A stretch of DNA of 64,000 nt from a phage. Made by a program: the position numbers and the translations under genes. The stretch's first letter is position 1. Each line of letters begins with the position of its first letter. The DNA lies in sequence record PZ445527.1. One strand, 5' to 3'. Positions 11,926 through 59,779 of this stretch are shown here, piece by piece. A model generated the notes under the pieces. The model did not search any database. It was not told the origin of the DNA and saw only the letters and a program-made list of their open reading frames with translations.

Positions 11926-14900
11926 TTAAGAATTACCAAGAGATTTCAGGGTGGTTCCATTCTCATTAAGAGCCAGTTCCACGGCATCTCTGAAAGCAGT
12001 ACTATTATTCGATGCAAAATCTCTGAAGCTTGCTGCATCCATAGTGCTGATATTCAGGATAATAGGTCTACCAGAAGAGGACCTTGATCCTTCGGAAAGC
12101 TGATCATTAGGCGTAGCTTTCATAGGAACCATAGGAGTAATTACCTCGGTACCATGCTCACCCATTTGATAGCTTACTCCAGGGTACATCATACCACCCT
12201 CAGCACGCGGAACAAAGGAGTTAGCATTACCAATACCTTTATCACCACGTAGGTAGGATAGTTCTCCTGAACTAGCTTGCATAGATACATCAACATTTTT
12301 CTGTCGTTCACCTAGAGTTAAGTACTTAGTAGTATTTGCTCCAGAATCCACAGAGGGTATAGAGGATGCACTAGAAGCAGAGGCTAAGGATAGTGCGCCT
12401 GCAGCAGCCGCAGTGGCCATCATCGTTAACCCTAATGGTAAGAACGGACGGGTAGCTGCAGCGTTCATCATAGCTACGGCTGTAGATATGATTATTTGCT
12501 TTTTAGCTTCTCGCTGCTGTATCTTAGTCTTTTCTGCCTCCAACTTCTTGATTTTAGCTTTAGATTCCTCAGACTTACCATCACGCTTCTGTTCTGCTGC
12601 AATAGCCTGGTCTATTGCACTTATTTGCTGGTTAGCAGAATATGCCATCATCTGTCCCACCATCTGCATACCTGCAGATATGGTTGTTATACTATCCAAG
12701 CTATTTTGTGCATTAGCCACCACTGCTAAGGAGAAATTACCTATGCTGTTAGCCAATGCTGTAGAAGCAGAATCCACTTCTGACATCTTAGCTATAGCCT
12801 GATCATACATAGACATTCTATTCTCAAAATCAGCAAACTCTTTATCATCACCAGATAATCCATTGGTAGGAGTGAATGTACCCCCTAGTGAGGATATGAC
12901 TGATTTGTACTTTTGATTCTCTCTTTGCTTTTTAAGCTGTTCTAGGGCCGCTGAAGTTTTATAAATCTCATTACGATATTTTATTTCTTCCTCAGTATTA
13001 GCCTTAGACAGTTCTAGCTGTTGCTGCAGAATGGATAATCTTTCCACAAGAATTTGAGATTGACCAGTAACATTTCTTTGTGTTTGGCTAACCTCTAATG
13101 CATCCATGAGGGCTGACACATGTGAGGCAGTTGCCTGATTTTCTGCTTCCCATATTTCTCTACTTATTTGTGCTTGAGCACGCCTTGACTGTTCTACTTT
13201 AGCTTGACCATCCGCTTGTTTAGAGTATAACTTCGCTTTTTCCTGCTCTAACTGCAGCTCTAGTCTTAACTGCGCTAAACGATACTGAGTACTCGTCATA
13301 GTGCGGTCATTCAGAAGAGCTATTTCTCTGTCAACACCAAGAATTTTATCTGTTTGATCCTTAACCTTTTTAGCGGTTTCAAATCCTTGAGCTTTAGTAT
13401 TAAGAATTTCTGTCTCTATCTTAGCTACTTGTTTTAATGCTTCGGGATCATTAGGGTTAATAGCTAGCAACGCTTTTGCTGCCGTAAGTTGTTCCTGCTG
13501 TTGACGCAATAATACTTCTCTAGCTGCTGCCTCTGCCTTAGCCTTGTCCTTAGTCTGGTTGTAAACCTCATCTTTGCGCTTAGCTACTTCCAGTGCATTT
13601 TGCTCACTCTTATCCATAGCAGTTACATATTCTGCTAGGCCTTTCTGAGCATTCTTAATTTGATCTAGGCTTGTGAAACCTAGATTTAGATCCTTAACTA
13701 GAGTATCTGCACTTTGCCCAGTTATTTTAGAAGTATCTTCTATTGCCTTTACAACACTGTTTAGGTCACTAGAGGCTTTCTTAGCGTTAGTAATACTACT
13801 TGCCGCCATTTTTATGTTATTTGCAGTATCACTAGAACTTTTCTTCAGGAAGTCAAAGTTCTTCTGTATCTCTGCTGCAGCTTTGAGGTTCTTAGGATCA
13901 ATTTCGAATACTCCTTTTTCTCCCGGGACAGCAGTGGCAGCATACTTCATTTTAGCTCCTAACTGCTCAGCCAGATTGCCATTACGTAACAGAGCTTCCC
14001 CGGTATCCTGTACCGCTTGTCTTAGAACCTTCTCAGTTTTGGCTCGTTCTTCTATTTCTTTGTTTTGACGAGCCAACTCATTAGTAAGTTGTACTACTAA
14101 CAGATTACTCTCATCTCTAGGAAGACCACCAAAAGCAGTCAATGCATTGACAAAAGGAGCAGTAAATGATTGTTTTGCTCTAATATCATCCAACTGCTGT
14201 TTAATCTCTTGAGCTTTCTTAATACGTTCTTCACTTTCTTTAAGATATGTATCCAGATCTTCTTGAGCCCCTACAGCATTCCCTATTAAAGCTGTAACGT
14301 TTTCAGATGGAGTAATTTTAGCGGATGCACTACGTGCCATTGCAGAAACTCTTGATTGAGAAGCCTTAGTTTGGTACAAGAAAGTATTAAGGGTATCCAT
14401 AACAGGATTTAAGTATGTAGCAGCACTTTGTTGTAAACTTCTTAGAGCTGAGTTAGCATTGGCAGCAAATTGTTCCCAAGAGGTTGCCTTAAGAGCATCA
14501 TCAAGGTATCCAAATCTACGAGTAGACTCTGCAATAACCTCATTTGCATATGCTTGTTGTTTCTGGTAGGTAGTCAGGCTATCTACAGTATATTTAATGC
14601 CTGTACTGGTAGCATTTAACTGTTTAACATAATTTGCATACGCATCGTTAAGACGAATAGTAACACCAAGTTCGTCCAGAAGTTCGATTTCTTGTTTTGA
14701 TACACCCTTAATTACACGGTTAAGTGCATCAGTCATATCAACACCAAGAACAGCAGCAGCACGACGTGCTACTAAACCAAACTGCTCCAATTGTTCACTG
14801 TCAAATCCATAAGCGGAGGCAGTAGATGCTTGACGCATAGCTTCTTCAAAGGATATAGCACCATTAGTAGCGTTTTGTAGGGATAAAGCTAATGTCTGTA

Positions 14901-55402: not shown

Positions 55403-55714
55403 TCACAGATCGGGGCGCTTATCTTCTAAACAGTCCGAGCTAATATCTTCTCCGAATCCTACGAAGCCATCAAATTCATTTGAAATATCCGTAATCATTG
55501 CTTCCATTTTCCTAATCTCCGAGGTTTTCATCCCTGCTTTACTATTCTTAAAGTGTTTGCGAGGATTCCCGCACATCCAACAAGAACAGATACAAGGAGT
55601 AGTAGTGATAATACCTAACCGTTTAGGGCTTTCTTCATGCGGGAAGACTGTCCAATATTTCTTGCGGTTGTTCTTCACACGTTGCCGGTGATGACGTCTT
55701 AATGCTCGATCCAC
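55403..55714 (-). CDS. putative zinc-binding protein
   Basis: CICSCWMCGNPRKH motif. Confidence 0.45.
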   Translation of the reverse strand: MDRALRRHHRQRVKNNRKKYWTVFPHEESPKRLGIITTTPCICSCWMCGNPRKHFKNSKAGMKTSEIRKMEAMITDISNEFDGFVGFGEDISSDCLEDKRPDL

Positions 55715-55795: not shown

Positions 55796-56164
55796 TTACA
55801 TCGCCTGAGTAAATGTACGACTAATAACGTCGTTCTGCTGTTCACGCGTCAGTGCGTTAAAACGCACAGCATAACCAGAAACACGAATGGTTAGCTGAGG
55901 ATATTTTTCAGGATGTTTCTGAGCATCCAAAAGCTGGTCACGACTTAACACATTGACATTTAGGTGTTGACCCCCTTCAATTTGAGGGGCGACTTCCACC
56001 TTGACTTCACGAAAGGATTCGGGGTCAAAGTGAGGTGTGATACCTTCTAGATCCTCAACTAGAACTTTTTGTTTAAGTTCACCATCTTTAGAGTATAATT
56101 GAATAATCTGATTATTATGAACAATATTAATTACGCCAGATTTAAGATTTTGATATGCTTTCAT
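55796..56164 (-). CDS. grcA: autonomous glycyl radical cofactor (GrcA/YfiD-like)
   Basis: 122 aa; C-terminal glycyl-radical motif [13 protein letters not shown] and GGQHLNVNV...[19 protein letters not shown] closely resemble E. coli GrcA and the pyruvate formate-lyase C-terminus. Confidence 0.8.
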
Positions 56165-56529
56165 TAGATCTCCCTGATGTTAGAATTTGGCTCAGCTTTT
56201 TGTTAACCCAGAAGCAAGATAAAAACTGGAAGGCAGGCTTGCTTTTCTCTTAACCACTAGGCTACTTTTGGGTGCTAGCATTCCGGTGAGATTGATGGTC
56301 TCGGTTAAGAAGAAAAACACGGGACTTCTGTTTTAACGTCGTGCTCCCGGATTGATGCGACTACGTGATTGCTCGCGCTAAGACAATGGCTATCTAAAGT
56401 CTTAGCTTCTACATTTATACTCCTGGATAGCATGGAGTTGCAGTCTACTTCCTGCTGTCACGCCCGGTCATTTATAGAATGTGGACTCTCTTCTCAGCAA
56501 GTTCTGGCACTATGGCCTGATCTTCTGTT

Positions 56530-56604
56530 TGGTAGTTAGTAGTGGAATCGAACCAGGTTCCACGGTTTACAAGACCGTTGCATCGCCAGCAATGCTTTAA
56601 GAGC
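56530..56604 (-). tRNA. tRNA-Thr(UGU)-like element with unpaired acceptor stem
   Basis: CCA end, T-loop TTCGATT, perfect anticodon arm ACGGT-CTTGTAA-ACCGT, D-arm GCAT-TGCTGGCG-ATGC; the 5' seven nucleotides do not pair with the 3' acceptor strand; abuts HNH gene stop. Confidence 0.35.
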
Positions 56605-56996
56605 TATCGTTGTCTTGTTGAAACTCTATTTCTGGCCCTATGCGTAGAGGTCATAGAGTGGCAGTTAGGGCAGAGAATCTTTAGATTTTCTGGAGAACAG
56701 TTAGTTGCATCTCCATCTATATGATCTACCTCAGTTAAAACTGCTCCGTCAATTGGATGTTTCCCATCCCAACCACATACTTCACAAGCAGTACCACGAG
56801 TATCCCACAGCCACTTCCTAACAAAAGGTTTTAATTGTGCAGCTTTACCAGTATAACCAGGTTCTTCACCTGCCAGCCACTTTAATACTTTTTGCTTTGT
56901 CTGGTACTCCTGCTGACAAGCAGGACCACAATACTTACCTGCGGAACCTCTACTTTTAGGTTTTGTGATTCCGCAATTTAAACAAGTAAACTCCAT
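56604..56996 (-). CDS. HNH endonuclease with N-terminal zinc finger
   Basis: CLNC...CGPAC zinc finger and HNH motif EVDHIDGDATNCSPENLKILCPNCHS. Confidence 0.75.
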   Translation of the reverse strand: MEFTCLNCGITKPKSRGSAGKYCGPACQQEYQTKQKVLKWLAGEEPGYTGKAAQLKPFVRKWLWDTRGTACEVCGWDGKHPIDGAVLTEVDHIDGDATNCSPENLKILCPNCHSMTSTHRARNRVSTRQR

Positions 56997-57160
56997 GTTG
57001 CTTCCTATTTCAACGGGATTTCTTTTTCAATAACAAGGGCTTATCAGTCATAACTGTCATTGCCATTTGTTGTAGAAATTCAAAGGTGAAGGCTACACGT
57101 TCTTCACCAATCTCTACTTCTACACGTTTCTTTTGTTTGTCAACCTTTAATTTTAGGCTA

Positions 57161-57398: not shown

Positions 57399-57474
57399 TG
57401 GAGCGGCTAGAGGGAATCGAACCCTACTCAGCGAGGCTTGGAAGGCCTGCGACACAACCCGTGTGCTTAACCGC
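57399..57474 (-). tRNA. tRNA, anticodon tentatively UCC (Gly)
   Basis: encoded CCA, T-arm TAGGG-TTCGATT-CCCTC, 7-bp acceptor stem with one G-U; anticodon loop CTTCCAA; atypical short D-loop. Confidence 0.5.
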
Positions 57475-59431: not shown

Positions 59432-59779
59432 TTAGTTTAACCGTAAAGTATTATCTAATTCACCATTAATTGTTCGGCATTCCTCTGGAATTGCTGGTGT
59501 GGCCTTGTATTCCCACCACTCAGCACCATCATATTCCCCACGTTCTAGCCAAGTTCCGTCGGCAAACCATACATTACCATAAAGTAATTGTCCACCGTAT
59601 CCAGAATCATACTCAAAGTCTAGGTTATCAAGAAAATCCTCAATATCTTCTTCTGTATAGCCTAAAGGTAATACCCAAACTTTTTTATCCCCATAATACC
59701 CGAATTCTATTTTAATACACTTAATTTTAGAATTGGTATTTTTTAAGGCAAGTAACAACTCTTCTTTAGCATTACGCAT
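59432..59779 (-). CDS. hypothetical protein
   Basis: 115 aa ORF. Confidence 0.5.
   Translation of the reverse strand: MRNAKEELLLALKNTNSKIKCIKIEFGYYGDKKVWVLPLGYTEEDIEDFLDNLDFEYDSGYGGQLLYGNVWFADGTWLERGEYDGAEWWEYKATPAIPEECRTINGELDNTLRLN

Follow-up and report, generated by a model that had tools for sequence, protein, structure and literature searches.

A small minus-strand gene in the phage DNA PZ445527.1 (64,000 nucleotides, the whole of which we call the window) encodes a 122 amino acid protein that, by analogy with its characterized relatives, probably serves as a spare part for repairing host pyruvate formate-lyase (PFL) damaged by oxygen in infected cells. We put the probability of this reading at roughly 0.7. 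The first-pass annotation had described the product as a phage-encoded spare glycyl-radical protein of the GrcA/YfiD type, and that identification is right, in agreement with the matches to Pfam PF01228, phrog_1209 and the PDB entry 6owr. The gene itself is already known. Its product is 100% identical to T5.056 of phage T5 (YP_006884.1; T5p055, AAU05208.1), which has been recognized since the T5 genome was deposited, and the family has been known since 2001-2005. The gene and its parts are as follows.

55796..56164, minus strand: complete coding sequence of the GrcA-like protein, with an ATG start, 122 codons and a TAA stop (13.96 kDa; from the open reading frame listing)
55799..55984, minus strand: C-terminal half (amino acids 61-122), a PFL-type glycyl-radical domain corresponding to PflB 698-759 (PF01228, matches to 6owr and 1h16, Foldseek)
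55871..55885, minus strand: RVSGY motif, amino acids 94-98 (sequence reading, alignment register, invariant in 74 homologues)
55874-55876, minus strand: GGT codon of Gly97, at which the radical is predicted to form (PflB Gly734, GrcA Gly102)
55985..56164, minus strand: N-terminal half (amino acids 1-60), a putative diverged counterpart of the GrcA N-terminal region (hhalign, AlphaFold2, dN/dS)
56170-56174, minus strand: Shine-Dalgarno sequence GGGAG, 5 nt upstream of the ATG (read from the sequence)

The reading frame at 55796..56164 is the longest of its frame and is bounded by stop codons. It agrees exactly with the 122 amino acid frame reported earlier, lies on the minus strand, and contains both peptide strings that had been quoted from it. 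The protein is stand-alone, with its own ribosome-binding site and no fusion to the barrel of a glycyl-radical enzyme. Consensus scans for a promoter or terminator belonging to this gene gave no more sites than shuffled sequence. The sole -10/-35-like site (56206-56177) was rejected as a promoter, since transcription from it would begin within the ribosome-binding site.

The glycyl-radical domain assignment of the C-terminal half is secure by sequence comparison, and the similarity is far beyond chance. The profile search suggested in the first-pass annotation, against Pfam Gly_radical (PF01228), gives an E-value of 3.6e-18 and a score of 66.5 bits (gathering cut-off 22.2). In a phmmer search against all PDB chains, E. 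coli YfiD/GrcA (6owr) comes first (E-value 1.6e-30), with an alignment covering amino acids 49-121. PflB (1h16) is matched with an E-value of 4.8e-27, and residues 61-122 of the query fall on PflB 698-759, so that Gly97 corresponds to the radical residue Gly734. Re-inspection of RVSGY, at which a missing glycine would have counted against the assignment, finds the residue in place, encoded by GGT. Foldseek with the AlphaFold2 (AF2) model matches the YfiD NMR structure and PFL. Over amino acids 61-122, identity is 48/62 to GrcA, 49/62 to PflB and 50/62 to TdcE (77-81%). The motif RVSGYAV is invariant among 74 homologues, along with 35 other positions. The earlier description of the core as nearly identical to GrcA and PFL is fair, as a 20-residue stretch is the same as in GrcA and 48 of the last 62 residues agree.

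The N-terminal half is another matter, and the T5-type version is the most diverged within the family. Profile-profile comparison with hhalign finds no match between the T5-type N-half and that of bacterial GrcA (E-value 0.19), a weak full-length match between the T5-type N-half and that of the T4 and jumbo phages (E-value 7.6e-4), and a clear one between the T4/jumbo-phage N-half and the bacterial one (E-value 3.1e-9). On these profiles, homology of the T5-type to the bacterial N-half appears to be only transitive, via the T4 and jumbo phages. Relative to the GrcA N-terminal region, the T5-type N-half also has an insertion of approximately 7 residues (YSKDGEL). The AF2 model predicts a beta-meander over amino acids 1-40, with beta-strands at pLDDT 83-91. 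We considered whether an ordered N-terminal domain is a novelty specific to T5 and rejected this idea: when an E. coli-type GrcA is used as the target of the same alignment, its N-half is modeled as equally ordered and beta-rich, although the N-terminal region of E. coli YfiD is disordered in solution by NMR (PMC8683613). The prediction thus says little beyond the presence of the same kind of N-half, perhaps one that folds on binding. Foldseek searches of the N-half against the PDB and BFVD gave no significant fold match. In YfiD, the N-terminal half is required for binding to cleaved PFL and for efficient activation (PMC8683613).

How widespread is the gene, and is it maintained? By tblastn, 1584 of 50,697 phage records have a homologue. 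At an identity of at least 80%, there are 437 records, all T5-like; 454 records share the surrounding 2.5-kb region. Approximately 1100 T4-like records carry the homologue as gene vs.6, with approximately 52% identity over the full length, and further homologues occur in jumbo phages of 345-357 kb and in Vibrio and Aeromonas phages. The hosts among the matches listed are facultative anaerobes that contain PFL, e.g., Escherichia, Salmonella, Klebsiella, Shigella, Aeromonas, Vibrio and Yersinia. All nucleotide differences in the gene are synonymous, both against T5 (17/17) and against MET_P1_100_107 (18/18). Over 28 distinct T5-like alleles, dN/dS is 0.11 for amino acids 1-60, 0.017 for amino acids 61-122 and 0.07 overall. 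Purifying selection acts on both halves.

The best E. coli DNA match of the gene is the 3' end of pflB (74%). We rejected recent capture from a host, given that DNA identity to pflB, tdcE and grcA is merely 74-75% or so and is confined to the 3' half. The T4 protein Y06I agrees with GrcA at 60 of 62 positions of the C-half and the T5 type agrees with host proteins at 48-50 of 62, which suggests that the T5 type is an old separate branch and no recent host copy. Among metagenome-derived clusters, six (P0078, P0097, P0099, P0106, P0113 and P0116) consist of 127 amino acid proteins that join the N-terminal part of E. coli GrcA to a PflB C-terminal tail (…FNSLTKEQQQDVITRTFTQSM). They come mostly from assembled contigs of 1-5 kb, and one cluster has 900 members. 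The probable explanation is chimeric assembly over the stretch in which grcA and pflB are almost the same; real gene conversion is conceivable.

Infection by T5 or T4 silences the genes of the host and breaks down its DNA. PflB and host GrcA would not be resynthesized during infection, and the phage would therefore need a copy of its own, for which a 14-kDa spare part would be the cheapest fix. In the mechanism that we propose, the GrcA-like protein would be synthesized early in infection, and its C-terminal 62 residues would mimic the glycyl-radical loop of host PFL together with the flanking strand and helix. The host activase PflA, a radical-SAM enzyme, would abstract a hydrogen from Gly97 of RVSGYAV. 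The radical-bearing domain would then dock into host PflB (possibly also TdcE) whose loop has been cut at Gly734 by oxygen, and the radical would pass to Cys419, restoring the conversion of pyruvate and CoA to acetyl-CoA and formate.

This scheme is modeled on published biochemistry. Oxygen cleaves active PFL at Gly734; PFL activase installs a glycyl radical on YfiD/GrcA and T4 Y06I, which bind cleaved PFL and hand the radical to Cys419, so that catalysis is restored (PMC8683613, PMC12338860). No PFL spare parts other than YfiD and Y06I have been validated (PMC8683613, PMC12338860). The T4 homologue that the first-pass annotation mentioned is Y06I, which was shown to restore oxygen-cleaved PFL (Wagner et al. 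2001, quoted in PMC8683613). For the T5-type protein, we infer the repair function by homology, and the individual biochemical steps, the reliance on host PflA and the argument from host shut-off are likewise our inference. Given the diverged N-half and a C-half with 77-81% identity to host proteins, transfer of function from T4 seems less safe than the names suggest.

Neither the 64-kb window nor kb 24-80 of T5 yielded a radical-SAM activase gene, which suggests that a host activase would be needed. T5 has a second glycyl-radical protein, the class III ribonucleotide reductase NrdD, which carries its own glycyl-radical domain (NC_005859, 53961-55685; 17962-19686 in our locus L005). No NrdG-like activase is annotated in T5 and none is detectable in kb 24-80, and both T5 glycyl-radical proteins apparently rely on host activases. 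A tblastn match of jumbo-phage NrdG in the window, at 59642-59752 (E-value 0.043), lies in a reading frame with neither a Cys motif nor a Pfam match, and we attribute it to chance.

PFL is the formate source of the cell. Formate provides both reducing equivalents for the class III reductases that have been characterized, the T4 enzyme included (PMC4493059). Once the host is shut off, nothing but a spare part encoded by the phage could keep PFL running and formate flowing to the phage reductase. It is tempting to hypothesize that phage GrcA-like genes mainly secure formate for deoxynucleotide synthesis via the class III reductase, rather than serving the general upkeep of fermentation; we offer this tentatively, as a possibility that we consider less likely than not. 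The class III reductase (NrdD) is encoded by T4, T5 and the jumbo phages. In jumbo phages of 345-357 kb (loci L007, L008 and L039), nrdD is followed 10-14 nt later by the grcA-like gene, a DUF4326 gene and nrdG, all on one strand; the arrangement of nrdD and the grcA-like gene is looser in two other jumbo-phage loci (L040 and L041). The jumbo phages with the gene in the reductase operon are Klebsiella-type. Aeromonas phage 65 has the order nrdA-nrdB-nrdD-nrdG-vs.6-nrdC, in which vs.6 begins 17 nt past nrdG, and in a 258-kb Vibrio phage the grcA-like gene directly follows nrdA-nrdB.

When phage sequences are clustered at 75% identity, a reductase gene lies within 500 nt of the homologue in 4 of approximately 16 clusters, and 3 further clusters have one within 10 kb in some or all of their members. 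The more widespread gene is nrdD, with 2921 phage records against 1584 with a grcA-like gene, and in no host genus is it outnumbered by the grcA-like gene. The grcA-like gene and nrdD are not adjacent in T5-like phages or in T4 (in T5, nrdD is approximately 26 kb away), so that for the gene in PZ445527.1 the formate idea is an extension from other lineages. These lineages are few and partly related, and the synteny is only suggestive of formate supply. We found no paper linking phage GrcA-like genes to formate for the reductase in a literature search of incomplete coverage. The synteny nevertheless gives a concrete, testable reason for the presence of the gene in large virulent phages.

The DUF4326 gene between the grcA-like gene and nrdG in these jumbo phages (5368-5715 in L007, and likewise in L008 and L039) has a relative directly after nrdB in RB43-like phages (L043, L055, L057, L060 and L062). 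This makes a second small gene that accompanies the ribonucleotide-reductase genes of phages.

The same neighborhoods bear on an alternative in which the protein works directly with the class III reductase: it would replace the glycyl-radical domain of phage or host NrdD after oxygen damage, or would be a substrate of NrdG. T5 encodes an NrdD with a glycyl-radical domain and has no annotated NrdG, the homologue sits between nrdD and nrdG in the 345-357 kb jumbo phages and directly after nrdG in Aeromonas phage 65, and RVSGY is also found in jumbo-phage NrdD. However, a spare part must copy the piece that it replaces, and this protein copies the C-terminus of PflB and TdcE (49-50 of 62 residues). 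BLASTP against T5 NrdD gives an E-value of 5.1; the adjacent jumbo-phage NrdD aligns over a 25-residue loop alone (E-value 0.059), and NrdD of Aeromonas phage 65 gives no alignment. A Cys-rich zinc ribbon precedes the loop in NrdD C-termini and is missing from the GrcA-like protein. T4 Y06I was activated by PFL activase and rescued PFL (PMC8683613). The anaerobic ribonucleotide reductase, which the first-pass annotation had named beside PFL as a possible direct partner, is unsupported in that role, and we give this reading very little credence. The protein might instead act as a decoy or inhibitor, absorbing host PflA or occupying PflB without radical transfer and thereby shutting down or redirecting host fermentation (pyruvate and acetyl-CoA flux). 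Consistent with this, the half that governs recognition of cleaved PFL in YfiD is strongly diverged in the T5 type, and the C-half, under very strong constraint, has a sequence distinct from all three host paralogues. A blocker, however, would not need the fully conserved radical motif or the 35 invariant positions around it. The T4 homologue restores activity in vitro (PMC8683613), and the position of homologues in other phages beside genes for the reductase, a consumer of formate, favors keeping PFL on, all of which makes a decoy decidedly improbable.

Which host enzyme would be repaired? The preferred client might be the 2-ketobutyrate/pyruvate formate-lyase TdcE, or TdcE together with PflB, instead of PflB alone. 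The T5-type tail after the radical glycine is closest to TdcE, overall identity of the domain is highest to TdcE (50 of 62, against 49 for PflB and 48 for GrcA), and several GenBank records use the name “2-ketobutyrate formate-lyase.” The margin of 1-2 residues in 62 cannot discriminate, however, and the stretch before the glycine is closer to GrcA. Moreover, PflB is an abundant constitutive enzyme, while TdcE is induced under particular conditions only. We think a preference for TdcE unlikely. Finally, the reading frame could have arisen by chance, or could be what is left, without function, of a host gene fragment picked up by the phage: it spans no more than the C-terminal 8% of a PFL, and it is unannotated in the closest genome among the matches listed (OQ383620). 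Against this, the gene has a ribosome-binding site, differs from its relatives by synonymous changes only (dN/dS 0.07 overall), and is kept in 437 T5-like records and approximately 1100 other phage genomes, while the DNA identity of just 74% to host pflB speaks against recent capture. The selection data exclude a dead remnant, and the probability of an inert sequence of either kind is negligible. Repair of host PFL, of PflB and possibly also of TdcE, is the reading that we prefer.

As in T5, the gene has the T5.055 homologue on one side and the tRNA block on the other. The neighboring features in the window are listed here.

55403-55714, minus strand: T5.055 homologue, 103 amino acids, directly downstream of the GrcA-like gene
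56519-56607: fused tRNA-Thr/tRNA-Met remnant, called by neither ARAGORN nor Rfam
56604-56996, minus strand: HNH endonuclease reading frame, 130 amino acids; DNA 98.7% identical to the phage HdH2 copy
57399-57474, minus strand: tRNA-Gly (TCC), the counterpart of T5 tRNA-Gly, found by relaxed ARAGORN only and missed at default settings; the Rfam tRNA-Sec model scores 30.9 bits
59805-59881, minus strand: tRNA-Asp with anticodon ATC (GTC in T5) and a C-A mismatch in the acceptor stem (C-G in T5)

The T5.055 homologue has a CxCxCxxC cluster (TPCICSCWMCGNPRK). This cluster, CICSCWMC, is the only C...C..C motif among window reading frames of at least 80 amino acids; in the T4 neighbors vs.5 and vs.7 no such motif was found. 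The T5.055 homologue stands beside the GrcA-like gene in 29/29 T5-like loci examined and in no other lineage. Searches of Pfam and the PDB gave no match for it; its PHROG family is phrog_4499, of unknown function. We considered it as a mini-activase and rejected it, given its length of 103 amino acids, the lack of a Pfam or PDB match, its membership in phrog_4499 and its restriction to T5-like loci.

On the other side, the region upstream of the gene (56165-57010) is rearranged compared to T5. A 345-bp segment (56174-56518) is missing from T5 and from MET_P1_100_107 and is found in other Salmonella T5-like phages. The T5 block of tRNA-Met, T5.057, tRNA-Ile, T5.058, promoter P11 and tRNA-Thr is mostly lost in PZ445527.1, where the fused tRNA-Thr/tRNA-Met remnant is what is left of it and the 345-bp segment and the HNH gene are present instead. 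As RNA, a 437-nt stretch upstream folds marginally better than shuffled sequences (z = -2.06). The tRNA-Asp may be decaying, or may be an unusual tRNA with A34.

The window is that of a T5-like phage. Phages of the T5 type (Demerecviridae, Tequintavirus and relatives) match the 2.5 kb and the 24.5 kb around the gene in their hundreds, at approximately 88-95% identity, with no identical DNA record for either region among the matches listed. Names given to the gene differ from record to record. In NC_005859, T5.056 is labeled “putative acetyltransferase-related protein” via IPR001150. In AY692264 (T5 st0), the label is “pyruvate formate-lyase related protein,” with the glycine radical motif PF01228 and the acid-induced glycyl radical enzyme COG3445. 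The closest complete genome among the matches listed, OQ383620, leaves the gene (12001-12366 in our locus L001) without annotation. Other GenBank labels are “hypothetical,” “pyruvate formate-lyase,” “2-ketobutyrate formate-lyase,” “formate acetyltransferase,” “acetyltransferase-related” and “ribonucleotide reductase subunit,” the last sometimes attached to a truncated 67 amino acid product (P0033). None of the labels “acetyltransferase-related,” “pyruvate formate-lyase,” “2-ketobutyrate formate-lyase” and “ribonucleotide reductase subunit” is correct for this gene. A literature search found no paper on the T5-type GrcA-like protein. The deletion in T5 st0 does not bear on whether the gene is dispensable; we rejected that argument because the deletion begins at 33.7 kb and the gene lies outside it.

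The main practical value of the analysis is the annotation of the GrcA-like gene. Therapy and biocontrol directed at E. coli and Salmonella in the gut, an environment of low and variable oxygen, make use of T5-like and T4-like phages. A repair part for a central fermentation enzyme, carried by the phage, is among the few clues to the energy and formate supply of a silenced infected cell in such an environment.

Comparison with established families shows where the protein should be filed. It matches phrog_1209 (“unknown function”; 121 positions) over its full length, with amino acids 1-122 on positions 1-121 and an E-value of 5.8e-48. The NCBIfam equivalog model TIGR04365 has a cut-off of 170 bits, a database threshold tuned to bacterial proteins, which the GrcA-like protein misses with 121.5 bits and a match to amino acids 50-122 alone. 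The score of E. coli-type GrcA is 233.3; T4 Y06I scores 153.3, the K64-1-type jumbo version 135.8 and that of Aeromonas phage 65 132.2, so the T5 type is the lowest among the phage versions tested. As the validated T4 Y06I also falls below the cut-off, the miss seems to mark divergence of the phage N-half and not a different function. On these scores, the protein appears best filed with the phage branch phrog_1209. Of the 744 positions of TIGR01255, just 683-744 are matched (86.1 bits; cut-off 994). The NRDD domain PF13597 gives no Pfam match in the GrcA-like protein, which by this comparison is evidently no ribonucleotide reductase subunit.

Besides T5.056, three known systems are the closest points of reference. 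The C-terminal domains of PflB and TdcE are 49/62 and 50/62 identical to that of the phage protein, with the radical glycine in register with Gly734. In contrast, the ten-stranded barrel of approximately 700 residues with the catalytic residues Cys418/Cys419 is missing from the GrcA-like protein, which is therefore no formate-lyase by itself, and the names “pyruvate formate-lyase” and “formate acetyltransferase” are misnomers. T4 Y06I (vs.6) has a likewise two-part layout and a similar length (120 vs. 122 amino acids), begins with MKAYQ as well and is 52% identical from end to end, and both T4 and T5 are virulent coliphages that encode NrdD. The two phage proteins differ in that the C-half of Y06I is 60/62 identical to E. 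coli GrcA, compared to 48/62 for the T5 type, and in that homology to the bacterial N-half is clear for T4 (E-value 3.1e-9), whereas the T5-type N-half is linked to it weakly, through the T4 and jumbo phages (E-value 7.6e-4). Of the two, the T4 protein is the one that has been tested biochemically. E. coli GrcA/YfiD (6OWR; TIGR04365, IPR011140) is likewise small and stand-alone, with a second copy of the PFL radical loop in its C-terminal domain. AF2 predicts a beta-rich N-half for an E. coli-type GrcA as for the T5 type, a prediction that does not discriminate, and there is no detectable sequence similarity between the two N-halves. The E. coli gene is under host anaerobic and acid control, whereas the T5-type gene is carried by the phage and presumably expressed from phage early promoters.
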